Shown: positions 1 through 45,352, counted from the stretch's first letter. The stretch: 53,497 bases of DNA from an uncultured Dehalococcoidia bacterium (GCA_964649215.1 CAZYOV010000003.1:1-53497), one strand, 5' to 3'. A program made the numbers and translations. The notes: generated by a model not told the origin, from the letters alone.

Positions 1-1263
1 GGGATGATAAGCGTGGACGCGTTCGCGCTGTTCTTCAACTTCCTGTTCGCGGGCATCGCCGCCATCGTGATCCTCAGCTCTATCGACTTCCTGCGCGGGA
101 GCCGGTTCGTCGCGGAGTACTACGCGCTAGTGCTGGCGTCAACGGCGGGGATGATGCTGCTGGCGAGCACCATAGACTTAATCGCTATCTTCGTGGCGCT
201 GGAGCTCACCGGCATAAGCCTGTACATCCTGGTGGCGTTCATGAAAGACGGCCGCTCCAGCGAGGCGGGGCTGAAGTACCTGCTCCTGGGAGCGATAAGC
301 TCGGCCGTGGCGCTGTACGGGATGGCCTACCTGTTCGGCATCACCGGCTCTACGTCGCTGGACGACATCGGGCGGGCGGTGAGCGAGGCGAACGACGAGA
401 CACGCTCGGCGTTGGTGCTGGCGATGGTGTTCCTGGTGGCCGGGTTCGGGTTCAAGATGGCGATCGTGCCGTTCCAGATGTGGGTGCCGGACGTGTACGA
501 GGGGGCGCCGACGCCGGTGACGGCCTATCTCTCCGTAGGCAGCAAGGCGGCGGGATTCGCGGTAGTAATGCGCGTCTTCCTCACCGCCCTCGATGACGGC
601 TCCATCTCCAGCGACTGGGCGAACGTGTTCGCCATACTGGCGGCGGTCTCCATGAGCCTGGGCAACATCACGGCGCTGGTGCAGGGGAACATCAAACGGA
701 TGCTGGGCTACAGCTCGATCGCCCAGGCTGGTACTTTCCTCATCGGTCTCGCGGCGGTTGCCGCCGCCGACCCCCAGCTGCTGCTGGGGACGAGCTCAGT
801 GCTGTTCTTCCTGGGGACGTACGCGTTCACCAACCTGGGCGCGTTCATCGCCGTCATCGCGATCTCCAGCAAGATCGGCTCGGACGATATCGCGGACTAC
901 GCGGGCGTGGCGAAGCGTTCGCCGCTGTTGGCGCTGGGGCTCACCCTCTGCCTCCTATCGCTGACGGGGATACCGCCGACGGCGGGGTTCATCGCCAAGG
1001 TGTACGTGTTCAACGCCGCCGTGCAGGCCGATCTCGTCTGGCTAGCGATCGTGGGGGTGCTGAACAGCGTGGTCGCGGCGTACTACTACCTGCGTGTGGT
1101 GCTCAACATGTACACCGCCGAGCCTGCGAGCGAGGAGAGCATCCAGCCCGGATACTACCTGGGCCTGGCGATGGTCGTGGCCGTGGTGGGGTTGCTGGTC
1201 GTCGGTATATTCCCCAGCCCGCTGCTCGAGGCGTCCGAGGCGGCGGCCGGGGTGTTCGGCTAG
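1..1263 (+). CDS. nuoN: NADH-quinone oxidoreductase subunit N, 5'-truncated by the window edge
   Basis: Polytopic hydrophobic protein with EAGLKYLLLGA, GFGFKMAIVPFQMWVPDVYEGAPTPV, NIKRMLGYSSIAQAG and GIPPTAGFIAK motifs; the frame is open at position 1. Confidence 0.95.
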   Translation, partial: GMISVDAFALFFNFLFAGIAAIVILSSIDFLRGSRFVAEYYALVLASTAGMMLLASTIDLIAIFVALELTGISLYILVAFMKDGRSSEAGLKYLLLGAISSAVALYGMAYLFGITGSTSLDDIGRAVSEANDETRSALVLAMVFLVAGFGFKMAIVPFQMWVPDVYEGAPTPVTAYLSVGSKAAGFAVVMRVFLTALDDGSISSDWANVFAILAAVSMSLGNITALVQGNIKRMLGYSSIAQAGTFLIGLAAVAAADPQLLLGTSSVLFFLGTYAFTNLGAFIAVIAISSKIGSDDIADYAGVAKRSPLLALGLTLCLLSLTGIPPTAGFIAKVYVFNAAVQADLVWLAIVGVLNSVVAAYYYLRVVLNMYTAEPASEESIQPGYYLGLAMVVAVVGLLVVGIFPSPLLEASEAAAGVFG

Positions 1264-4761: not shown

Positions 4762-5538
4762 ATGACGCCGCCACGGTTGTACAAGACGGAGGCGATCGTC
4801 CTGCGGCAGCGGAAGCTGGGGGAGGCGGACCGTATCCTCACGCTTCACACGCCGACACACGGCAAGCTGGACGCCAAGGCGAAGGGTGTGCGCAAGACCA
4901 CCAGCCGGATGTCGGGGCACCTCCAGCCGCTGAACCGCTGCATGGTGCAGCTAGCGCGGGGGCGGACGATGGAGGTGATCGCCGGGTGCGACACGCTGGA
5001 GAGCTTCCAGCGTCTGCGCGACGACCTGGATCGGCTGAGCCGCGCTCTCTACGTCGCCGAGCTCGCCGACCGTTTCCTGCCGGAGCGGGTGGAGAGCGTG
5101 GCGATCTACCGGTTGCTGCTGGGGACGCTGCGCCGCCTCCAGAGCGACGCGGATCAGGACATGGTGCTGCGATACTATGAGATGCGGCTGCTGGACCTGA
5201 GCGGCTTTCGGCCGGAGCTGGCGCGTTGCCTGGGGTGTGACCAGCCGCTCCAACCGCAGCGAAACTTCTTCGCGCCTGCTGCGGGAGGTACGTACTGCTC
5301 CTCGTGCGGCGCGGGAGCGGCGGGGTCGCGGACTCTTTCGCTGAACGGGCTCAAGGTGTTGCGACTACTCCAGCGGGCATCGTATAAAGAGACAGGACGG
5401 CTGAGCATGCCGCCGGCGCTAGCGCAGGAGGTGGAGCGCCACCTCCGCAGCTACATCGTCTACATGCTGGAACGCGACGTCAACGCCGCCGCCTTCGTGG
5501 AGCGGTTGCGACGGGAGCAGCAGCCGCTAGAGGTCTGA
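4762..5538 (+). CDS. recO: DNA repair protein RecO
   Basis: KTEAIVLRQRKLGEADRILTL OB fold, AKGVRK, CLGC..CSSC Zn motif. Confidence 0.93.
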   Translation: MTPPRLYKTEAIVLRQRKLGEADRILTLHTPTHGKLDAKAKGVRKTTSRMSGHLQPLNRCMVQLARGRTMEVIAGCDTLESFQRLRDDLDRLSRALYVAELADRFLPERVESVAIYRLLLGTLRRLQSDADQDMVLRYYEMRLLDLSGFRPELARCLGCDQPLQPQRNFFAPAAGGTYCSSCGAGAAGSRTLSLNGLKVLRLLQRASYKETGRLSMPPALAQEVERHLRSYIVYMLERDVNAAAFVERLRREQQPLEV

Positions 5539-24870: not shown

Positions 24871-24995
24871 GCCCGAGACCATCCGCGGCGGCTAACGAAG
24901 GTGGCGACTCGCCCTAGCTCTTATCGGAGATCTGCTCCCCACGTTACGCAGACCTAGTGTGCGTTCGCGTCACCCCGGCAGCAGCGCCCGCCCCG

Positions 24996-25024
24996 TTGAC
25001 AGCCGCCCCACCGAGGCGCACAAT
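24996..25024 (+). promoter_or_regulatory. sigma70-type promoter of the DUF1059 gene
   Basis: TTGACA, 17-nt spacer, CACAAT. Confidence 0.65.
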
Positions 25025-25070: not shown

Positions 25071-25253
25071 ATGGCTTACGTCGTTCACTGCAGAGACACC
25101 GGCACTGACTGTGACGCAGTCCTGCGTGGAGACACGATGGACGAGCTACAGCAGAAGATCGCTGGCCACGGCAAGGACGCTCACGGCATGGATATCGCCA
25201 GCATGCCTGAGGACGAGAAGCAGAAGCTGATGTCTCTGGTCAGGCAGGAGTAG
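25071..25253 (+). CDS. DUF1059-family small metal-binding protein
   Basis: CRDTGTDCD..GDTMDEL..HGKDAHG; strong GGAGGAG SD before the ATG at 25071. Confidence 0.82.
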   Translation: MAYVVHCRDTGTDCDAVLRGDTMDELQQKIAGHGKDAHGMDIASMPEDEKQKLMSLVRQE

Positions 25254-25316
25254 CAACTCAACGGCGAAGCCACCCCCAAAGGCAATAGCCCCCTACGGCT
25301 GTCGACCGGCCCCTCG

Positions 25317-25345
25317 TTGACACCCACCCCGCCCAGGCGCACAAT
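25317..25345 (+). promoter_or_regulatory. Second copy of the TTGACA-N17-CACAAT promoter, facing the 3' end of an opposite-strand gene
   Basis: CGTTGACA..AGGCGCACAAT shared with 24994-25024. Confidence 0.55.
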
Positions 25346-25360
25346 CGCGGCGGATTCGTT

Positions 25361-26311
25361 TTACAATGGCAGGTCTTCGACTCTAAGGCTACCAGGCGAT
25401 TTTCCCTCGCGAGCCGCCTGACTGGCCGCACGCTGCAATGCTCGGTTGTACGGTGTGGGAACACCATGAAGTGAGCCGAGCAGAGCAATCTCGCCGTTTA
25501 GATAGTCGGTCTCAATGGAGTTTGATCCGCGGGCGAGGCTCTGCCATGTGGAGCCGCCTCGATGCGGGTGACCCTCTATTTCGCCGTGCGTGATGGCGGC
25601 GGCCCGCTGACCGATCTCAGTTGGCTGCGCGAACTCGATTCCAGCCGCTTCATAGCAGGCGATAGCTTCGTCTCTTACCGTTCGGACGATGTCACCGGCC
25701 TTAGCCTCAGGCCCGAAGAGCGCCTGGACTGTGTTGGCCAAGTTGAGCAGCAGCTTACCGTACTTGAAGCGCATGATCTGCGGCTCAGGACGAGCAATGA
25801 AACCGCTCTCAGTGAGATCGGAAGTTACCTGCTCGATCAATGAGTCAACGCCGTGCGGGTAACAGCCGGCGTCTAAGAGCCCACCGATCGAGGAGGCGTG
25901 CATCAGCACCTGACCTGGCTCAACGAGAGTACCAGGCAGAAAGACAAGCATGCCGTAAACCCGCGAGAACTGCCTCAGAGCCATGCGCTCGTTCGCCACA
26001 CCGTTTTGTGCGCAGATCACTGGTATGTCGCCAGCGGTGGCTCGAAGGTCGTCAAGCGCTACAGCGGTGTCCTGTGACTTCATGGTGAGAAGGACGACAT
26101 CGTCATCCCGAAACTGGATGCCAGACGGGTGGCCGACCGATGTTATCGGCAGAGTGACCGTCTCGTCCGGCGTAAGAAAGATCAGGCCGTCTTCCTGCAG
26201 TCTCTCCAGGTGCCTTCCACGGCTGATCAATACAACGCCGTGGCCTACCTGATGCAGGCGAGCGCCCATGCTACCGCCTATGGCTCCAGCTCCGTAAATG
26301 ATGTATCGCAA
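25361..26311 (-). CDS. Ketopantoate reductase (PanE/ApbA) family protein
   Basis: YGAGAIGG, KSQDT, AQNGV, KYGKLLLN, STWQS..E.DYLNG; TTG start with GGGAGG SD. Confidence 0.88.
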   Translation of the reverse strand: MRYIIYGAGAIGGSMGARLHQVGHGVVLISRGRHLERLQEDGLIFLTPDETVTLPITSVGHPSGIQFRDDDVVLLTMKSQDTAVALDDLRATAGDIPVICAQNGVANERMALRQFSRVYGMLVFLPGTLVEPGQVLMHASSIGGLLDAGCYPHGVDSLIEQVTSDLTESGFIARPEPQIMRFKYGKLLLNLANTVQALFGPEAKAGDIVRTVRDEAIACYEAAGIEFAQPTEIGQRAAAITHGEIEGHPHRGGSTWQSLARGSNSIETDYLNGEIALLGSLHGVPTPYNRALQRAASQAAREGKSPGSLRVEDLPL

Positions 26312-26380
26312 GTTGCTCAACCTCCCATGCGAATTCACCCTAATATAAGCGTATCCCCTGTAGTGTAGAATAGTTCCGCC

Positions 26381-26464
26381 ATGGAGCCGCGCATCCAGTA
26401 CGCCCAGACCAAGGATGGGGTGAGCATCGCGCCGAACGATCAGAGGCACTGGACTCATCGTTGA
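26381..26464 (+). pseudogene. N-terminal relic of an alpha/beta-hydrolase / class III nucleotide cyclase gene
   Basis: MEPRIQYAQTKDGVSIA then an early stop; TAGAAT 9 nt upstream; family recognised from memory only. Confidence 0.55.
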
Positions 26465-26542
26465 CGAGTTCGGCGATCTCCACTAGGATAGGCGCTGCCT
26501 GGCGGGACTAGTGTTAGCCAGCAAGCCCAATCTGGGGGCAGC

Positions 26543-27571
26543 ATGGTCAGACGGCTCATCGTCTGCTCAGACGGGACCTGGAACACTCCGGATCAAGAGT
26601 TCAGAGGTGTGCGCGCGCCCACCAACGTGGTCAAGATGGCGCGTTTCATCCTCCCTCAGGCACCGGACGGTAATCCACAGATCCTTTTCTATGATGCCGG
26701 TGTAGGCACCGACAACTTGCTCGACATGCTGTCCGGCGGTGCTCTCGGCATCGGGCTCTCCAAGAACGTGCGTGATGCCTACCGTTTCTTGATCCACAAC
26801 TACGCCGACGGTGACGAGATCTACTTCTTCGGGTTTAGCCGAGGCGCCTATACTGTCCGTAGCGCCGCAGGGCTCATCAGAAACTGCGGCTTGCTTCATA
26901 AGGAGAACGTCGATCGGATCCCGGATGCCTTCAGGATCTATAGAAAGCGTGACGAGGGCGCCGACACTGACGAGGCCATAGCATTTCGCGATAAGTACTC
27001 ACGGCATCCCATGGGGATCAAGTTCATCGGCGTGTGGGATACGGTCGGCGCTCTTGGCATTCCAAGCGATTTATTTCATTTCCTTGGCAGAAGCCGCTAT
27101 GAGTTTCACGATGTCTCACTTAGCCGGAGCGTTAACTTCGCCTTCCAAGCTGTCGCTATCGATGAGGAGCGGACATTCTACCGGCCCGCCCTGTGGAGCC
27201 AGCACCCAGAGGCAACCAACCAGGTGCTAGAGCAGTCCTGGTTTGCCGGTGTACACATGGACATTGGTGGGGGCTACCCCGAGAGCGGCCTTTCGGATGC
27301 CGCATTCCTTTGGATGAAAGAGAAGGCCGAGGCCACTGGGCTCGCATTTGATGAGGAGATCCTCGAGGCGCTTACACCTGATCCTTTCGGCAGGCTTCAT
27401 GTTTCAAGGACCTTCCCGTTCAATCTCTTCCCGCCATACAGCCGGCCAATCGGAAACGGGGAGCGCTCGGAAGAGACAGTCCACTCAGGCGCCTTGAAGC
27501 GCCATGAGGAAGACTCTTCGTATCGGCCTAACAATCTCATTAGCTATCTTAGGAGGAACTCACCGACATGA
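26543..27571 (+). CDS. DUF2235 (Tle1-like phospholipase domain) alpha/beta hydrolase
   Basis: RRLIVCSDGTWN, GFSRGAYTVRS, GVWDTVGALG, WFAGVHMDIGGG. Confidence 0.9.
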   Translation: MVRRLIVCSDGTWNTPDQEFRGVRAPTNVVKMARFILPQAPDGNPQILFYDAGVGTDNLLDMLSGGALGIGLSKNVRDAYRFLIHNYADGDEIYFFGFSRGAYTVRSAAGLIRNCGLLHKENVDRIPDAFRIYRKRDEGADTDEAIAFRDKYSRHPMGIKFIGVWDTVGALGIPSDLFHFLGRSRYEFHDVSLSRSVNFAFQAVAIDEERTFYRPALWSQHPEATNQVLEQSWFAGVHMDIGGGYPESGLSDAAFLWMKEKAEATGLAFDEEILEALTPDPFGRLHVSRTFPFNLFPPYSRPIGNGERSEETVHSGALKRHEEDSSYRPNNLISYLRRNSPT

Positions 27572-27616
27572 TAGTTCGGAGTTCGAGAGAGGCGGTACGA
27601 ACGTAGGAGGTGCAAG

Positions 27617-27844
27617 ATGGCGGATGGAAGCAAGGCGCCGAGCGGGACAGGCGAGAGGGAGGAGAATAGCTGGGAACACCTCACTAGTTATTCCAAAGAA
27701 GTGATGGAACGGGTCATCCAGTACCACACGCCAGTACGCCAAGACGAAGAACGGGGTGAGCATCCCCTACTGGACGCCTGGAAGACGCCTAGAGGAGCGG
27801 CGTGCCGGTTAGCAACAGGGCCGTATCATATGCGCAATCCGTGA
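27617..27844 (+). CDS. Small hypothetical protein
   Basis: Strong AGGAGG SD; its TGA overlaps the GTG of the next gene (27841-27844). Confidence 0.4.
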   Translation: MADGSKAPSGTGEREENSWEHLTSYSKEVMERVIQYHTPVRQDEERGEHPLLDAWKTPRGAACRLATGPYHMRNP

Positions 27845-28611
27845 CACGTCTCACTGCCGGCATATTAATTGGTGGCATACTCGGCGTTTCCCTAATCGCA
27901 GGCTGCGCAGGTCGAACCTCAGCCCCCAAGACGGAGCCGACGATGCCATCAGAGGTCACTACCATACCGGCCTCAACCGCCGCGTCCACAGAGACGCCTT
28001 CGCCTACGGTGTCTGAAACCCCTTCTGGTGGATCCATGCAAGAACTGGCACTGCTTGAGAACTACGCGGCTACGAGCTTCTTCCCAGATACTATCCTCGT
28101 TCGCAGGGGCGTCCCGGTGAGACTCTACTTCACGCGGCTCCACAGGGAGCACGTGAACCAGTTCGCCATCGAGCCCTTCTTCAGCACGTCTGATGTAATC
28201 CTGCCCGGAGAAGTCGCGACGTTCGAATTCCTGGCTGATGTAGCAGGAGAGTTCAAGATCCGCAACGTCGGCCACGGCTTCGAAGCAACGCTGGTCGTCG
28301 TCGAGAATGAGCAGGAAGAGGCCTCAATTCGAGCGGAGGCGGGCATCCAAGAGATCGCCTTGATCTATAACAACGGCATGCCGCGCCTCATTCCCGAGGA
28401 GATCACTGTCGATAAGGATATCCCCGTGAAGGTTTACAACTTGGCGATCGACGGACAGCATCGCATTTCAGTGCCACCCTTTTACTCCCCCGCAGCTGCG
28501 AACGTCGAGCCCATGGAGATCACCACTTTCGAGTTCACGCCGAACGAAACTGGAACTTTTGAGATACTCGATGAACTCTCAGGCCTTGTGGCCACCTTAA
28601 TCGTTAGATAG
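27841..28611 (+). CDS. Lipoprotein with two cupredoxin-like (EfeO-type) domains
   Basis: LIAGC lipobox, S/T/P linker, two repeats of PxxIxVxxGxPV..F. Confidence 0.65.
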   Translation: MTRLTAGILIGGILGVSLIAGCAGRTSAPKTEPTMPSEVTTIPASTAASTETPSPTVSETPSGGSMQELALLENYAATSFFPDTILVRRGVPVRLYFTRLHREHVNQFAIEPFFSTSDVILPGEVATFEFLADVAGEFKIRNVGHGFEATLVVVENEQEEASIRAEAGIQEIALIYNNGMPRLIPEEITVDKDIPVKVYNLAIDGQHRISVPPFYSPAAANVEPMEITTFEFTPNETGTFEILDELSGLVATLIVR

Positions 28612-28621
28612 GGAGGCCATT

Positions 28622-29341
28622 ATGAACAGGGCAACGACTCTAGCACGCCCAATTCAGCCGGCGCGTCGATCTCAACGACTGCATTACGCTGCTGGGTTGA
28701 TTCTCCTCTCGGTCGCTGCCTTGCTCGTGGCGTGCACTGGGAGCGGATCGGATCAGTCGGCGCATGACGACGGCGACCACGATGAGGGCACCGACCTCCT
28801 GGTGGTGAAGTCGAGGGAGCAAGGATTGGCCCTGGATGAAGACCTAGCCGAAGAGATTCTGAGCTATGATGATGTCGTTCGTGTCGAGAAGTATATTCGG
28901 CTAAGGATGGAGAGCTTTGACGTTGTGGGCATTGAACCGAGTGCGCCTATGAGGATCATGACGGGGCAACCTGACGTACACCTAACGGGTGCCGAGCTAA
29001 CAGCCGGAAGGGAGCTTGAGGCGACAGACGCCGACGAGAATCTCGTACTTGCGGGGCAACTGTTCGCCCAGTCAGTTGGTACATCAACCGGCCGCACCTT
29101 CGGACTGCCCGGTACCGAATACGAATTGGTCGTCGCAGGTGAATTCTCGACTACGCCGCCTGAGCTATCGAGCACCATACTCATGCCGCTTGGCTTGGTT
29201 CAAGAGATATACGGCAAAGACCGGAAGGTCACCCACTTCTGGGTCAGCGTCGAGTCTCCGGATAGTGTGCATGACGTCATACGAGCCCTTCAGCTTGGGC
29301 TCGGTGAGTCTTTGGAAGTGCTTCCCAGAACCCATCAGTAG
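28622..29341 (+). CDS. Lipoprotein with a MacB-like periplasmic core domain and no permease helices
   Basis: LVAC lipobox, VVGIEP, AGREL, LAGQLFA..VG, VVAGEF, ILMPL..VQ. Confidence 0.6.
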   Translation: MNRATTLARPIQPARRSQRLHYAAGLILLSVAALLVACTGSGSDQSAHDDGDHDEGTDLLVVKSREQGLALDEDLAEEILSYDDVVRVEKYIRLRMESFDVVGIEPSAPMRIMTGQPDVHLTGAELTAGRELEATDADENLVLAGQLFAQSVGTSTGRTFGLPGTEYELVVAGEFSTTPPELSSTILMPLGLVQEIYGKDRKVTHFWVSVESPDSVHDVIRALQLGLGESLEVLPRTHQ

Positions 29342-29367
29342 TAGAGCCGTGAGAGATGTTGGCTAAC

Positions 29368-29418
29368 AGGGGCGAGGCGGAGCTAAGGGGGTTCGAGAAG
29401 CCAGTGCGGCTGTTTGAG
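29368..29418 (+). pseudogene. C-terminal relic of a class III nucleotide cyclase domain
   Basis: RGEAELRGFEKPVRLFE resembles the cyclase C-terminal (D)RG.v.L(K/R)GF..PV.lye motif. Confidence 0.5.
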
Positions 29419-29442
29419 GGTGAAGTGGCAGGAGGGCGGCTG

Positions 29443-30615
29443 ATGAAATCGGGAATCAATCAGGGGCGAGCTGAGGGGCTGGGTGAGCTACGTGACATCC
29501 TGCCCCGCACTACTGCCGTCCTGGAGCAGGGCCTCAACGAGGGGTTGCATATCGGCGCTCAGGTATACGTCTCTCGGCACGGCAAGGCAGTTGCGGACTT
29601 CGGTGTTGGCGAGGCGCGGCCCGGTGTGCCGATGGACGCCGATTCGATGATGCTCTGGTGGTCGTCAACCAAACCCGCCGTAGCAGTCGCCATCGGCCAA
29701 CTCTGGGAGCGAGGTCAACTCGACATCGAGGAGCGCGTCTGCACTTACATACCGGAGTTCGCTAACAAGGGGAAAGAGGCAGTAACTCTACGTCACGTCC
29801 TCACCCACACCGGCGGCTTCCGGTTCGCCGATGGCCGGGATGGGTTCCGTAAGAGTTGGGATGAGATCATCGCCCGAATCTGCGACGCGGACCTAGAGGA
29901 CGGTTGGATTCCCGGCGAGAAGGCCGGTTACCACCCTTCATCCGGGTGGTTCATCCTCGGGGAGGTCGTCCGGCGAATCGATGGTCGGTCCTTCCAACAG
30001 TTTGTGCGCGAGGCGATCTTCGAGCCGTTGGGTATGAACGACTGCTGGGTGGGCATGCCGCCTGCGCGTTACCGGGCCTACGGCGACCGCATCGGGGTTA
30101 TGCACAACACCGAGGGTCCAGAGCCCGAGCCAGTGCCCATCATCGACTCCGAAGAAGCGTGCTCTCGCTGCGTCCCCGGTGGTGGGGGCCGCGGGCCAAT
30201 GCGCGAGCTGGGGCGCCTCTTCGAAGCACTGCTCGGCGGCGGCCAGTTGGGTGAAGTGAGCGTCCTGTCTCCCCAGACCGTTTCAGCCATGACCGCCCGC
30301 CACCGCATCGGCATGTTCGACGAGACCTTCCGTGTCGTGATTGACTGGGGTCTGGGCTTCGTGATCGACTCCATGATCTATGGCCGGCACTGCTCACCGA
30401 GGACGTTCGGCCATGGCGGCTTCCGCTCGTCGGTCGCGTTCGCCGACCCGGAGTGCGGGGTCGTGGCTGCAGTGGTTACCAACGGCATGCCGGATGATCG
30501 CCGGCACTACCCACGCTTTAGCGCCATCAGCTCGGCCATTTACGAGGACCTTGGCATCGCCGAGCAAGGCTCTCCTGGACGGGACCGCGCAAGGCCGAGC
30601 ACTGGGCTCTCCTAG
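29443..30615 (+). CDS. Serine hydrolase, beta-lactamase/class C-like family
   Basis: SSTK (SxxK), LTHTGG, PGEKAGYH, FGHGG; ATG at 29443 with GGAGG SD. Confidence 0.9.
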   Translation: MKSGINQGRAEGLGELRDILPRTTAVLEQGLNEGLHIGAQVYVSRHGKAVADFGVGEARPGVPMDADSMMLWWSSTKPAVAVAIGQLWERGQLDIEERVCTYIPEFANKGKEAVTLRHVLTHTGGFRFADGRDGFRKSWDEIIARICDADLEDGWIPGEKAGYHPSSGWFILGEVVRRIDGRSFQQFVREAIFEPLGMNDCWVGMPPARYRAYGDRIGVMHNTEGPEPEPVPIIDSEEACSRCVPGGGGRGPMRELGRLFEALLGGGQLGEVSVLSPQTVSAMTARHRIGMFDETFRVVIDWGLGFVIDSMIYGRHCSPRTFGHGGFRSSVAFADPECGVVAAVVTNGMPDDRRHYPRFSAISSAIYEDLGIAEQGSPGRDRARPSTGLS

Positions 30616-30776
30616 GCCCACCTCGTCGCAACATCGCCTCCGCCACCCACCGTGACGGCGGGGCCGCCGATCTCGGCGCAGTATTCAAGCGCGATAGGGG
30701 GTCGTCAAGTCTGAGCATGCGGGCCAATGCCGAAATTAACTGCCGCCTGACCTGGGATTGCGCTATCATGTCGGCG

Positions 30777-31844
30777 ATGACGCAAGAGCTATCGTACGCT
30801 GCCCCGCCGCGGGGGCTGGATGCGGGTGCTCGACCGTTCGCGGAGCGAGGGCCGCTGCCGCGGGCGATCCAGCCGATGCTCGCGTCGATCGGCGGGCAGC
30901 CCTTCGACTCCCCTTCGTATATCTTCGAGGTGAAATGGGACGGCGTTCGCGCCCTTGCGTTTCCAGACGCGAAGGAGGTGCGGATACAGGACCGATATCT
31001 GCGGGACGTGACGGAGCGGTACCCGGAGCTGCGCGGGCTAGGCAGGCGGGTGACGGCAACCGGCACGGTTCTGGACGGGGAGATCGTCGCACTGGACGAG
31101 GCGGGCCGGCCGGATCTATCGCGGTTGCGGGAGAGGCTGGCCGCGAGTGACGTGAAGGAGGCGCGCAGGCTGGCCGAGACGACGCCGGTCACGTTCCAGG
31201 TGTTCGATATACTGTACTACAAGGGGCGTTCCTTGATGGACTACCCCTTGTCGCGGAGGAAGAGCCTGCTAAGCAAGGCGGTGCGGGCGGACGAGCGCTT
31301 GGCGGTGCCGGGCTACATAGAGGGCGAAGGGGTCGCCTTCTTCGAGGCGGCGCGCCAGCACGACCTAGAGGGGATAATAGCCAAGGAGCGGGAGAGCGTC
31401 TACCAGCCGGGGCAGCGGAGCGAGGCCTGGCTGAAGCTGAAGGTCCATCAGAAAGAGGAGTTCGTCATCGCCGGGTTTACGTACCGCGGCCGGTCGTGGC
31501 GCGAGCGCCGGCCCCGGCGCAAACGCGAGCCGTTCGAATCGCTGCTACTGGGGTTGTACGACGAGCAGGGCGGCCTACGCTATGTGGGCGAGGTAGCCGG
31601 CGGCTTTACCGAAGCGAGCGCGGAGGAGACGGTCCGGGCCCTGGACGCCCTGGTGAGCGAACAGTGCCCGTTCGGGGAGGAGCCCGGGTTGCAGCGGCTG
31701 TTGTTCTGGTGCCGGCCGGAGCTGGTGGCGACTGTGCGCTTCGGGGAGTGGACGACTCAGGGAATGCTGCAGTTCCCGGTGTTCGAGGGGCTGCGACCCG
31801 ACGTGCCACCGGAAAGCTGCCGGCTGGACGCGGCCGGCGGGTGA
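30777..31844 (+). CDS. Stand-alone ATP-dependent DNA ligase (LigD/LigC-type ligase domain)
   Basis: EVKWDGVR, LDGEIV, FDIL, EGIIAK, WLKLK, OB domain; ATG 7 nt after TATCAT. Confidence 0.9.
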   Translation: MTQELSYAAPPRGLDAGARPFAERGPLPRAIQPMLASIGGQPFDSPSYIFEVKWDGVRALAFPDAKEVRIQDRYLRDVTERYPELRGLGRRVTATGTVLDGEIVALDEAGRPDLSRLRERLAASDVKEARRLAETTPVTFQVFDILYYKGRSLMDYPLSRRKSLLSKAVRADERLAVPGYIEGEGVAFFEAARQHDLEGIIAKERESVYQPGQRSEAWLKLKVHQKEEFVIAGFTYRGRSWRERRPRRKREPFESLLLGLYDEQGGLRYVGEVAGGFTEASAEETVRALDALVSEQCPFGEEPGLQRLLFWCRPELVATVRFGEWTTQGMLQFPVFEGLRPDVPPESCRLDAAGG

Positions 31845-35423: not shown

Positions 35424-36248
35424 TCAGCTCGCGGCGGCACGGCGACGGCGGCCGGTATCTTCGCCGGGCTCTTCCCGCTTGCGCTTCTTCGCCTCCTCGA
35501 CGCTGGCCTTTAGCGCCGCCATGAGGTCTGTGACCTTGGCGACGGGGGCGGCCGGGGCCTGCGCCACCTCCTGGCCCTGGAGCTTCGCCTCGATGATCTC
35601 CATGAGCGCCCGCCGGTACTCGTCCTGGTACTTCTCCGGCTCGAACGGCTCCTGGAGAAGATCGATGAAAGTGGAGGCCATCTCCAGCTCGCGCTCGGAG
35701 ACCTGAACCTCCGGCGCCTCCACGCCGCGCTCCACGCGGATCTCGTCCGGGTAGAAGAGCGTCTCCAGCATCAGGGTGCCGTCCAGAGGGCGCAAGGCGC
35801 AGAGCCGCTCCTTGTTGCGGATGGCAATCTTGGCGACAGCGGTCAGGTTCTTCTCTTTGAGGGACCGCATGAGCAGAGCGAACGGCTTCACCCCCGCCTC
35901 GTCCGCCTCCAGATAGTAGCTCTTCTCGTAGTAGATCGGGTCGATCTCATCCGCCTCTATGAACGCTGACAGCTCTATGGCGTGCTTGCTGGGCAAGGGC
36001 AGCTTCTCGAAGTCTGAGTCGTCCAGGATGACGTGCTGGTCCTTGGCGTACTCGTAGCCCCGCACGATCTCGCCCCGCTCCACCTCACGCTCGTCGACCG
36101 GACACCAGCGCAGATTCTTCAGCCGGCTGTTGTCGTCGCGGTGGAGGAGGTGGAACGATATGTCCTTGCTCTCGGTGGCCGTGTACAGCTTCACTGGGAT
36201 GCTCACCATCCCGAAGCTGATTAGGCCGTTCCATATGGACCGTGGCAT
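35424..36248 (-). CDS. ku: NHEJ Ku protein
   Basis: MPRSIWNGLISFGMVSIPVKL, IVRGYEY, IDPIYYEKSYYL, DLMAALKASV, basic tail. Confidence 0.96.
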   Translation of the reverse strand: MPRSIWNGLISFGMVSIPVKLYTATESKDISFHLLHRDDNSRLKNLRWCPVDEREVERGEIVRGYEYAKDQHVILDDSDFEKLPLPSKHAIELSAFIEADEIDPIYYEKSYYLEADEAGVKPFALLMRSLKEKNLTAVAKIAIRNKERLCALRPLDGTLMLETLFYPDEIRVERGVEAPEVQVSERELEMASTFIDLLQEPFEPEKYQDEYRRALMEIIEAKLQGQEVAQAPAAPVAKVTDLMAALKASVEEAKKRKREEPGEDTGRRRRAAAS

Positions 36249-44416: not shown

Positions 44417-45352
44417 CTAGACTCCCAGCGCTTCGGCCACCTTCCCCCAGCCTCGATCCTCCTGGCCTTCCAGCCGGCGCAAGTAGACAGTCGTAACCTG
44501 GAGAGAACTGTGGTCCAGGAACCGGCTGACGTCCTCCACCGACTCGCCTGCGTCGCGCCGCAGCTTGGCGGCCGCGTGCCGCAGGATATGGACGCCGGCG
44601 GGCGGAAGGCCTGCGGCCACGAGGTAGCGCTTCAGGCTGGCGTAGAACGTCCCATCCGTGATTCCAGCACGGTTCCTTGAGGGGTGGTGCGACGGCCATA
44701 GCGACTCATCCGAGTCCATCGCCGCCAGGCTCTTGCCCCTGACCGCCAGCGCAGTTTCAATCGCATCGAATGCCGGACGTGGCAGCTCGCGCTTTGCCCG
44801 TTTCCCGCCCTTGCCGCGATACGTGTAGAACAGCCCACCCGTCGTCGAGATGTCGCCGGCTTTAAGGTTCAGAATCTCGGAGCGGCGCCGCCCGGTGAGC
44901 ACGAGCGTCAGCGCGATCGCCCGGTCCCGAAGGCCCCCTGGCGTCTCGGGGATGGCCGACAGCAAGCGCCTGATCTCCTCAGCGCTCAGCCCCCGTGGCG
45001 GAGCAGGACTCACCCGGGGCCGCTCGATCTCGTCACAGGGGTTTGAAGACACAATCTTCATGCGGATCAGGAACCGGTAGAACGAGCTGACGCAGGCGAG
45101 GCGAGCGCCGATGGTGACCAGGGCGGGCTCGCGTCCCGAAGGCCCTCGGCCGTGCGCGAAGGCGAATACATTCTGGCTGGTGATCTGGTCCGGCGGCTTC
45201 CCGAGCGTCCCGAAGAAGCGCTGTAGCGTCCGCGAGTAGGCGTCTACTGTGCGCCTCGATCCGCTCCGCCGCTCCTTCTCGGCGAGGAAGGCGTAGAAGG
45301 CCTGTTCCCAGTCCGCAATCGTGTCATTGAATAGTACAATGTCGCTAGCCAT
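44417..45352 (-). CDS. XerC/XerD-like tyrosine recombinase
   Basis: SAM-like N domain; catalytic TGRRRSE (R), GKGGK (K), HILRH, LDH, TTVY (Y); GGAGGAG SD. Confidence 0.93.
   Translation of the reverse strand: MASDIVLFNDTIADWEQAFYAFLAEKERRSGSRRTVDAYSRTLQRFFGTLGKPPDQITSQNVFAFAHGRGPSGREPALVTIGARLACVSSFYRFLIRMKIVSSNPCDEIERPRVSPAPPRGLSAEEIRRLLSAIPETPGGLRDRAIALTLVLTGRRRSEILNLKAGDISTTGGLFYTYRGKGGKRAKRELPRPAFDAIETALAVRGKSLAAMDSDESLWPSHHPSRNRAGITDGTFYASLKRYLVAAGLPPAGVHILRHAAAKLRRDAGESVEDVSRFLDHSSLQVTTVYLRRLEGQEDRGWGKVAEALGV

Follow-up and report, generated by a model that had tools for sequence, protein, structure and literature searches.

Conserved ends of a hydrolase-cyclase gene family flank unrelated genes at a locus of an uncultured Dehalococcoidia bacterium

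Gene remnants and cargo at the locus

We analyzed a 53,497-nucleotide (nt) stretch of DNA from an uncultured Dehalococcoidia bacterium (GCA_964649215.1 CAZYOV010000003.1:1-53497; hereafter, the window), in which short pieces of an α/β-hydrolase–cyclase gene family are interspersed with unrelated genes. The window is contig C3 of the metagenome-assembled genome (MAG) G000, which comprises 3.03 Mb in 357 contigs with 3.4% contamination. From left to right, the locus consists of a panE/ApbA-like reductase gene, the 5' end of a family gene (N1), a gene for a DUF2235/T6SS_Tle1-like_cat α/β-hydrolase, a small open reading frame (ORF), genes for a cupredoxin-like and a MacB_PCD-like lipoprotein, the 3' relic of a family gene (C2), and a serine hydrolase gene (Table 1). 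The initial annotation had placed two terminal peptides at 26381-26431 and 29368-29418, in the same orientation and bracketing the DUF2235 gene, the small ORF, and both lipoprotein genes, and translation together with Pfam matches bore out this description.

Searches of the MAG by tblastn with both stop-to-stop peptides (E <= 0.01, the window's own copies counted) returned 49 N-end and 30 C-end matches. Sixteen of the N-end matches head ORFs of 437-469 amino acids (aa), all of which finish in the C-end motif, while another six belong to ORFs of 81-354 aa and the remaining 27 to ORFs of 5-43 aa. The N1 peptide itself, either exact or with one or two changed residues, was found by tblastn at 40+ loci of the MAG. 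One full-length copy contains the Pfam domains Abhydrolase_1 and Guanylate_cyc, and the closest solved chains to residues 282-443 of the family are the cyclase Ma1120 (E 2e-31) and LipJ 1ybt (E 7e-26). At the level of sequence similarity, these matches confirm that the two peptides are the extreme N- and C-ends of a family combining an α/β-hydrolase with a class III cyclase, as the initial annotation had stated. The expansion of the family in Dehalococcoidia, which the same annotation had assumed, is evident from the 16 full copies in this genome and from the first 23 nt of the gene, which at <=3 mismatches occur 49 times in G000, 22 times in its congener G001, and in 30 of 41 related genomes; a reversed-pattern control gave no matches across the 41 genomes. 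The exact 23-mer is present in at least 118 stretches, nearly all from Chloroflexota/Dehalococcoidia MAGs. Its conservation across genera may simply reflect a conserved peptide written in preferred GC-rich codons. Rfam searches at gathering thresholds gave no matches in the window and in three stub-rich loci.

Copies of the family share a -10-like box (TAGAAT, TAGGAT, or TACAAT) 9 nt upstream of the ATG, without a Shine-Dalgarno sequence, and their start is thus predicted to be near-leaderless. The same gTAGAATAgtCCCGCC-ATG layout precedes most paralogues and stubs. As the initial annotation had noted, N1 still has its -10 element, with the spacing common to the paralogues. This TAGAAT was not listed by a generic promoter scan because there is no good -35 element; a transcript starting from it would be near-leaderless. 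N1 is 98% identical to a living paralogue over 50 nt and opens a stub ORF of 27 aa that ends at a TGA at 26459-26461.

At the other end of the locus, the stretch 29368-29418 encodes RGEAELRGFEKPVRLFE in the reading frame of the ORF 29356-30615, and C2 is 88% identical to a paralogue over 43 nt. An extra G at 29419 shifts the frame of the relic; when this G is removed, C2 continues as VKWQEGG to a TGA at 29441-29443, which overlaps the ATG at 29443. This TGATG overlap matches the junctions of tandem paralogues elsewhere in the genome, and the comparison thus shows C2 to be an in-situ gene end, formerly coupled to the serine hydrolase. The hydrolase probably starts at this ATG and would once have been translationally coupled to the upstream family gene. 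The Abhydrolase and Guanylate_cyc domains themselves are gone from the locus: within 26381-29443, only residues 1-17 match a paralogue (E <= 1e-3), and the remnant is a pseudogene relic that encodes no enzyme. The longest ORFs of both neighbors (25361-26458, minus strand; 29356-29442, plus strand) run through the stubs, and automatic annotation would over-extend both. We rejected the longer panE-like ORF, which reaches 26458 and overlaps N1, as an ORF-calling artifact; its probable start is the GTG at 26338.

Two further family remnants lie inside the cargo. The first, N2, is a second and decayed N-end, with tblastn matches at 27704-27724 and 27732-27776. Its first part repeats the initial 21 nt of N1 at 81% (27704-27724, direct repeat D3), its second part repeats the following 34 nt at 88% (27731-27764, direct repeat D1), and its best paralogue match is 93.5% over ~47 nt. 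The small ORF that contains N2 is probably a by-product and not a real gene. The other remnant, C1', begins 10 nt past the DUF2235 stop and can be aligned, with a score of 30, to positions 33-74 within the final 78 nt of a paralogue. In a post hoc test, this score was reached by none of 300 shuffles and by one of 300 real window pieces; by this alignment it is a probable C-end remnant of the family. The presence of a second N-end and a probable C-end within the cargo implies that at least two family genes were involved, and N1 and C2 are probably not the two ends of one gene. The locus is best read as N1-DUF2235-C1' followed by N2-cupredoxin-MacB_PCD-C2. Because N1 is 98% identical to a living copy while N2 and C2 are decayed, the two modules look different in age.

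The DUF2235 gene is present in a single copy in the genome and was not found in the five congeners G001-G005 (76-87% complete); homologues at 55-77% occur in G012, G026, and G031, with no stubs nearby. A homologue of the cupredoxin-like lipoprotein (59%) adjoins one of the MacB_PCD-like lipoprotein (63-67%) in G012:C2, without stubs and without DUF2235. The cargo as a conserved mobile block was considered and rejected, since DUF2235 homologues stand alone in G012, G026, and G031 and only the lipoprotein pair travels together. A sigma-70-like site between N1 and DUF2235 is a possible promoter of the cargo's own, as judged by its consensus match. The initial annotation had also reported that no transposase is present. 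This holds for 26-29.5 kb, where we found neither a transposase nor a recombinase, and has to be qualified for the window as a whole, which contains a tyrosine recombinase gene, the nearest to the locus, 15 kb away. Directly to the right of the locus, genes for an ATP-dependent DNA ligase, a LigD-like protein, and Ku make up what appears to be a complete end-joining set. These genes are candidate machinery for joining unrelated ends.

The GC content is 55-60% across 25100-29600, which includes the panE-like gene, as compared to 63-69% on both sides. A single Logan contig of the probable source run spans 26386-31000 with 0 differences and bridges N1, the cargo, C2, and the hydrolase. Pieces of the cargo are present in three runs of other studies at 90-100% identity. 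Logan contigs over DUF2235 are near-identical to the window and of low depth, while those over the panE-like, cupredoxin, MacB_PCD, and hydrolase genes have identities of 92-98% and, in runs X2 and X3, a greater depth. Neither the depth of contigs nor a gap in their coverage is proof by itself, and the comparison is no more than a hint that DUF2235 is a younger, strain-specific module. One contig of run X6 links the sequence up to 26398 with that from 29439 onward, with ~319 unknown letters in between, and may represent a strain without the cargo.

Table 1. Features of the locus and its surroundings in the window
Feature	Position	Strand	Basis or detail
32-nt element, two copies flanking a DUF1059 gene left of the panE-like gene	24991-25024, 25312-25345	+	
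panE/ApbA-like reductase	25361-26338	-	domain begins at residue 53 of long ORF
Family-type promoter stretch before N1	26357-26380	+	TAGAAT -10-like at 26366-26371, 9 nt before ATG
N1, first 17 codons of hydrolase-cyclase gene (MEPRIQYAQTKDGVSIA)	26381-26431	+	tblastn, translation
Sigma-70-like site TTGACG-17-TAGGAT between N1 and DUF2235	26461-26489	+	consensus match only
DUF2235/T6SS_Tle1-like_cat α/β-hydrolase, 342 aa	26543-27571	+	PF09994, E 4e-85
C1', decayed C-end remnant, probable (TTCGAGAGAGGCGGTACGAACGTAGGAGGTGCAAGATGGCGGA)	27581-27624	+	local alignment
Small ORF, 75 aa	27617-27844	+	ORF call
N2, second, decayed family N-end	27704-27777	+	codons 1-7, 13-nt insertion, codons 6-22
Cupredoxin-like lipoprotein, 269 aa, lipobox LIAGC	27802-28611	+	PF13473
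MacB_PCD-like lipoprotein, 239 aa, lipobox LVAC	28622-29341	+	PF12704
C2, 3' relic of family gene (ANRGEAELRGFEKPVRLFE)	29362-29443	+	tblastn, family frame
Serine hydrolase, beta-lactamase family	29443-30615	+	PF00144, Pfam
ATP-dependent DNA ligase	30717-31844	+	
LigD-like ORF, 919 aa	31855-34614	-	named from sequence reading
Ku	35679-36218	-	
Tyrosine recombinase	44477-44989	-	PF00589

Recurrence in the genome and in other Dehalococcoidia

The 27 short N-end ORFs of the MAG include the two of the window, one run-off, two frameshifted or stopped but continuing genes (C44_33 and C248), and two duplicates, as contig C55 exactly repeats several kb of C7 with identical stubs and cargo proteins and thereby inflates the raw counts by two stubs. 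When the first 66 nt and the last 78 nt of each of the 16 full genes were used as queries in blastn-short, 59 N sites, 35 of them orphans, and 65 C sites, 49 of them orphans, were located. Once C55 had been dropped as a duplicate, a co-oriented orphan C site was found within 5 kb downstream of 11 of the 33 orphan N sites. Random placement gave a mean of 0.9 such pairs genome-wide and 2.8 within family-bearing contigs, and none of 2000 randomizations reached 11 either way. A few of the 11 pairs reflect a frameshift in a gene and not a replacement; apart from the window, clean pairs occur on C46, with CHRD-domain cargo, and on C54, with a BBE-type FAD oxidase and an unknown ORF.

From 29 listed stubs we removed three at contig ends, two family pseudogenes, and two duplicates, which left 22 usable ones. 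In 18 of these, a co-oriented ORF starts 54-202 nt past the stub ATG, and in the other four an opposite-strand gene follows. The cargo led by stubs comprises five class I methyltransferases, a cyclase-methyltransferase fusion, and DinB/DUF1706, CDGSH, CHRD, cupin, glyoxalase, SnoaL, BBE oxidase, AlkA-like, Band 7, and TIR-like proteins. The stub-led methyltransferases are mutually only 24-33% alike, indicating that their junctions arose independently. Moreover, every stub-cargo junction is unique, which argues for repeated illegitimate events rather than for one mobile element. The retained N-stub lengths are scattered from 20 to >66 nt, and the starts of the C remnants range over positions 3-49 of the last 78 nt, with partial clustering. 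The initial annotation had suggested that paralogues served as anchors for the exchange; the scattered break points and the differences between all junctions do not support this part of its proposal.

At G000:C120:2163 (minus strand, locus L162), nine family codons (MEPRIQYAQ) are joined in frame to an ORF of 252 aa, which starts with MEIIPAIDIRGG and was judged by eye to be hisA-like. At G000:C149:5144-5220 (locus L163), an N stub (nt 1-28, plus strand) is followed after 20 nt by an inverted N-end piece (nt 28-56, minus strand), an arrangement that looks like the scar of an inversion or of a hairpin-type break inside the conserved start. Behind the stub at G000:C51:8803-10167 (locus L155:1404-2768), a 454-aa ORF combines an N-terminal Guanylate_cyc domain with a class I methyltransferase domain, which suggests that the cyclase domain has also been shuffled onto other partners.

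Besides the gene ends, the genome contains a second repeat, the 32-nt promoter-like element CCGTTGACACCCGCCCNGCCCAGGCGCACAAT, which consists of TTGACA, an invariant 17-nt spacer, and CACAAT. It occurs 140 times in the MAG at <=5 substitutions (121 times at <=3 mismatches), in co-oriented arrays with a spacing of 0.4-2 kb on C25, C52, C54, C62, C120, and C13. The element is largely confined to the genus (G001, 47; G002, 15; G003, 13; G004, 9; G005, 5; few elsewhere) and in four runs the Logan contigs that contain it are very deep; contigs of the probable source run stop at it as well. A C remnant precedes 13 of the 140 elements, and an N start follows six. There are 26 tyrosine-recombinase matches in the genome, several of them on contigs with stubs or 32-nt arrays (C2, C17, C25, C44, and C62). 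G000 is listed at 3.03 Mb as compared to 1.4-2.3 Mb for the five congeners of similar completeness, and it has the highest counts of both the family start (49 versus 5-22) and the 32-nt element (121 versus 5-47); its extra DNA may consist largely of such arrays.

The same architecture is found in other Dehalococcoidia. The exact 23-mer retrieved 81 distinct copies, 16 of which run off the locus; among the 65 others, all in other MAGs, 45 head ORFs of >=430 aa, four ORFs of intermediate length, and 16 ORFs of <115 aa. Two of these 16, L032 and L050, are clear cases of a replaced interior. Locus L032 contains a 34-aa stub, an unrelated 156-aa ORF, and the last 126 aa of the cyclase. Similarly, L050, on a 143-kb contig, contains a 13-aa stub, a 161-aa ORF, ~110 aa of the cyclase end, and then the next paralogue; its 161-aa ORF carries an HCSAGFGRCGT loop, predicted to be CX5R-like. 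Because L032 and L050 lie in other MAGs, they support, independently of G000, the replacement of a gene interior between retained ends as a real and recurring type of event.

The serine hydrolase has one close orthologue among 40 relatives, in G001 (95% aa). Homology between the window and G001:C36 begins at 29401, inside C2, and extends over 1215 nt at 94%. G001:C36 keeps an orthologous, shorter relic (EDPVRLFEVRWKKGS followed by a stop), with TAATG at the same place. This shared relic shows, by sequence orthology, that C2 is older than the split of the two species. To the left of the relic, G001:C36 contains the gene for a cupredoxin lipoprotein of 157 aa and, beyond it, an intact paralogue with a stop that overlaps the lipoprotein ATG (TAATG); the DNA on this side has turned over at least once since the split, with an ORF-for-ORF fit. 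The panE-like protein was not found in the five congeners, except for a 31-aa remnant in G001:C18, a place where the matches are mainly copies of the 32-nt element. Serine hydrolase relatives at 73-81% in metagenome contigs have no family gene upstream.

Some cargo is shared between genomes in differing surroundings. The G001 cupredoxin lipoprotein gene is 85% identical in DNA to G000:C44:15592-16044, where a piece of N-end lies before it and a C remnant with another break point after it. The CHRD cargo of C46 recurs in G001:C207 (87%), where its upstream flank differs and the C remnant is joined elsewhere, and in G004:C62 (82%), with the upstream flank of G001 and without the remnant. These contexts show rearrangement around the family ends, and homologous exchange, deletion, or repeated illegitimate joining would each fit the pattern.

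Explanations for the locus

We hold with moderate confidence that a highly redundant gene family underwent repeated illegitimate insertion with deletion, in which selection would have favored copies that kept promoter and start together with a brief, harmless stub from which the incoming genes are expressed. At this locus (26357-29443), two tandem hydrolase-cyclase genes would once have stood directly upstream of the serine hydrolase gene and been translationally coupled to it. The body of each gene, between short 5' and 3' pieces, would then have been replaced by foreign genes, such that the near-pristine N1 would now head DUF2235, followed by the very decayed C1', while the decayed N2 would head the lipoprotein pair, ending at C2. 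The replacements may have been independent events of illegitimate recombination in a family so redundant that the loss of a copy would cost nothing. Those that survived would preferentially be the ones that kept the family promoter and the near-leaderless ATG with a harmless short peptide, and in which the cargo is expressed, a form of promoter capture.

Several observations weigh against this explanation. The join between the panE side and N1 is unbridged, as Logan contigs of the probable source run stop inside the repeated 26381-26430, with an overlap of only 20 nt. The identification of C1' depends on a single post hoc alignment. Co-orientation of the cargo in 18 of 22 cases is significant only against 50% (binomial p ~0.002) and does not clearly exceed the clustering by strand that bacterial genes show anyway, and DUF2235, with a sigma-70-like site after the stub, may not need the N1 promoter. 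No orthologous locus with an intact gene or genes at this place was found among the relatives and metagenome contigs, and the state before replacement is thus a reconstruction. An intact cyclase gene between panE-like and serine hydrolase orthologues, to which the initial annotation had pointed, was likewise not seen; as panE was not found in the five congeners beyond the 31-aa remnant and the 40 relatives have only the one close hydrolase orthologue, this comparison says little either way. Last, many short C remnants start within ~10 nt of one another near GTGCGGCTGT and are followed by the 32-nt element; when read by eye, the left borders of ~12 of ~20 cluster in this way. Such clustering and the 32-nt element fit a more specific process, or hitch-hiking, better than random breakage.

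A process of this kind is possible, if on the whole unlikely: the conserved family ends and the 32-nt element could together act in this genus as a gene-capture platform, either independent of a recombinase or served by other machinery. Foreign ORFs taking the place of family ones, ORF-for-ORF, would then inherit the promoter, the near-leaderless start, and the stop-start coupling to the following gene, and movement between loci would occur by recombination in the shared ends.

The order of events might also have been the reverse, with cargo units, each carrying a copied C-end piece, stacked downstream of family genes whose bodies were later deleted, each from shortly behind the start to shortly beyond the stop, bringing promoter and stub next to the cargo. 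We regard this as rather doubtful, and so too its corollary that the C remnant belongs to the cargo unit and not to a destroyed gene. Arrays of this kind are present: C12 has a full gene at 26205-27557 with C remnants behind it at 27869, 28820, and 29104; C97 likewise has a full gene, with C remnants behind it at 5016 and 4566; C44 has the order gene, glyoxalase, C remnant, spacer, and N stub; and the intact paralogue, lipoprotein, and C remnant of G001:C36 have a counterpart on G000:C44, where the same lipoprotein gene (85% nt) lies between an N-end piece and a C remnant. However, in L032 and L050 the cargo is immediately followed by genuine cyclase domain, 110-126 aa of it, as replacement predicts, and C2 lies in situ, as the end of a gene coupled to the one that follows. 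Moreover, a deletion leaves unexplained how the cargo units arrived behind family genes.

Rather improbable as well is an exchange of cassettes, in which the gene ends, the 32-nt TTGACA...CACAAT element, or both would be recombination sites, used either by a homologous route, as when genes are exchanged across shared flanks following DNA uptake, or by one of the tyrosine recombinases, and cargo would move between family loci. This could account for the same cargo standing by a C remnant at different places in the congeners (the cupredoxin gene of G000:C44 and G001:C36; the CHRD gene of G000:C46, G001:C207, and G004:C62), for the clustered left borders, and for the break of window/G001 orthology inside the C-end, and the co-oriented 32-nt arrays and the 26 tyrosine-recombinase matches are in line with it. 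Fixed sites are nevertheless difficult to reconcile with N-stub break points spread from 20 to >66 nt and with shared cargo genes that join the C remnant differently between genomes. In addition, no more than 13 of the 140 copies of the 32-nt element stand behind a C remnant and no more than six before an N start, and no recombinase lies beside the locus.

That only one family gene stood between panE and the serine hydrolase, and that it lost its interior in one event in which the 2.9 kb of cargo entered as a block, is distinctly improbable. The co-oriented N1 and C2 do bracket the cargo, and single-gene replacements exist at L032, L050, and C46. In this respect, the initial annotation was right that a gene interior can be replaced, since the type of event recurs (C46, C54, L032, and L050); that a single gene was affected here is probably too simple, because N2 and the probable C1' lie inside the block. 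The remnants also differ in decay, with N1 at 98% to living copies as compared to 93.5% and a 13-nt insertion for N2 and 88% and a 1-nt insertion for C2, and the lipoprotein pair occurs without DUF2235 in G012.

Finally, assembly errors at a 50-150-nt repeat, in a MAG as fragmented as this one (357 contigs, 3.4% contamination, contigs that break at the N-end repeat, C55 duplicating part of C7, and an unbridged panE-N1 join), or chance peptide matches, are very improbable sources of the pattern, because a mis-join at a repeat would give a chimeric intact gene or a swapped upstream context rather than a stub with unrelated DNA, a contig without differences runs from N1 through C2, cargo pieces recur in the runs of three other studies, stubs stand on long contigs elsewhere (L050, 143 kb; L099, 226 kb), and the reversed control found none in 41 genomes.

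Relation to known systems and significance

The living paralogues have the same two-domain order as fusions of an α/β-hydrolase with a class III cyclase of the LipJ/Rv1900c type (1ybt/1ybu; Ma1120, 4wp9; 3mr7), in which the peptides of the window correspond to the β-strand that opens the hydrolase domain and to the strand that closes the cyclase domain. The locus, in contrast, retains only 17 codons of one end and ~26 of the other, and 16 full copies in 3 Mb are far beyond what has been described in mycobacteria. In the orphan modules of Rhs/CDI polymorphic toxins and in the minimal mobile elements of Neisseria, conserved coding flanks enclose unrelated genes that are exchanged, and stubs are left as scars or possible anchors. 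The arrangement described here differs in that it has no toxin-immunity logic, its stubs are not fused in frame to the cargo except on C120, and its flanks belong to a multi-copy intragenomic family instead of being single-copy neighbors.

The closest concept is the reuse or capture of promoters. With putative mobile promoters, the stubs share near-identical upstream sequences that precede unrelated genes of one genome and recur in related taxa without a known mobile element; such promoters were defined by >=80% identity over >=50 nt upstream of unrelated coding sequences, at -150 to -50, and repeats that included the start codon and codons of a parent gene were removed by the authors' filter (Nijveen et al. 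2012, PMC3575422). The 75-nt promoter and stub of the hydrolase-cyclase family is 90-100% identical among copies that head unrelated genes. However, it lies at -25 to +50 and overlaps the start codon, the repeat consists of the start codon and 8-30 codons, the parent gene family is evident, and a matching 3' relic often stands behind the cargo.

With integron cassettes (PMC1382264, PMC8876359), the stubs share rows of small, unrelated, co-oriented genes punctuated by a repeat. In contrast to the mostly promoterless cassettes of integrons, the repeats here are promoter-bearing gene ends with variable borders. The locus lacks both the adjacent recombinase and the fixed site at every border that an integron or another site-specific array would have. 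An integrative island of the tRNA/ssrA type would carry an integrase and, on its far side, a direct repeat of the 3' end of its target; no integrase is encoded within 26381-29443, although C-end repeats behind cargo occur elsewhere in this genome. A literature search of narrow scope found no paper describing these stubs.

The remnants also affect gene annotation, as ORF callers extend neighboring genes through the stubs (the panE-like and serine hydrolase genes) or call spurious small genes (27617-27844). A lone pseudogene interrupted by an insertion would be nothing special. The pattern stands out by its extent and its uniformity: ~27 promoter-bearing stubs from one family are found in one 3-Mb genome, most of them heading unrelated small-molecule enzymes or lipoproteins and some paired with 3' relics, and other Dehalococcoidia have the same architecture. 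Should the stubs prove to be active promoters, a redundant family of signaling genes would serve as a stock of ready-made expression sites for acquired genes. This would provide a concrete and testable route by which uncultivated Chloroflexota wire in foreign genes, and it would explain part of their paralogue expansions and of the breaks in their assemblies.

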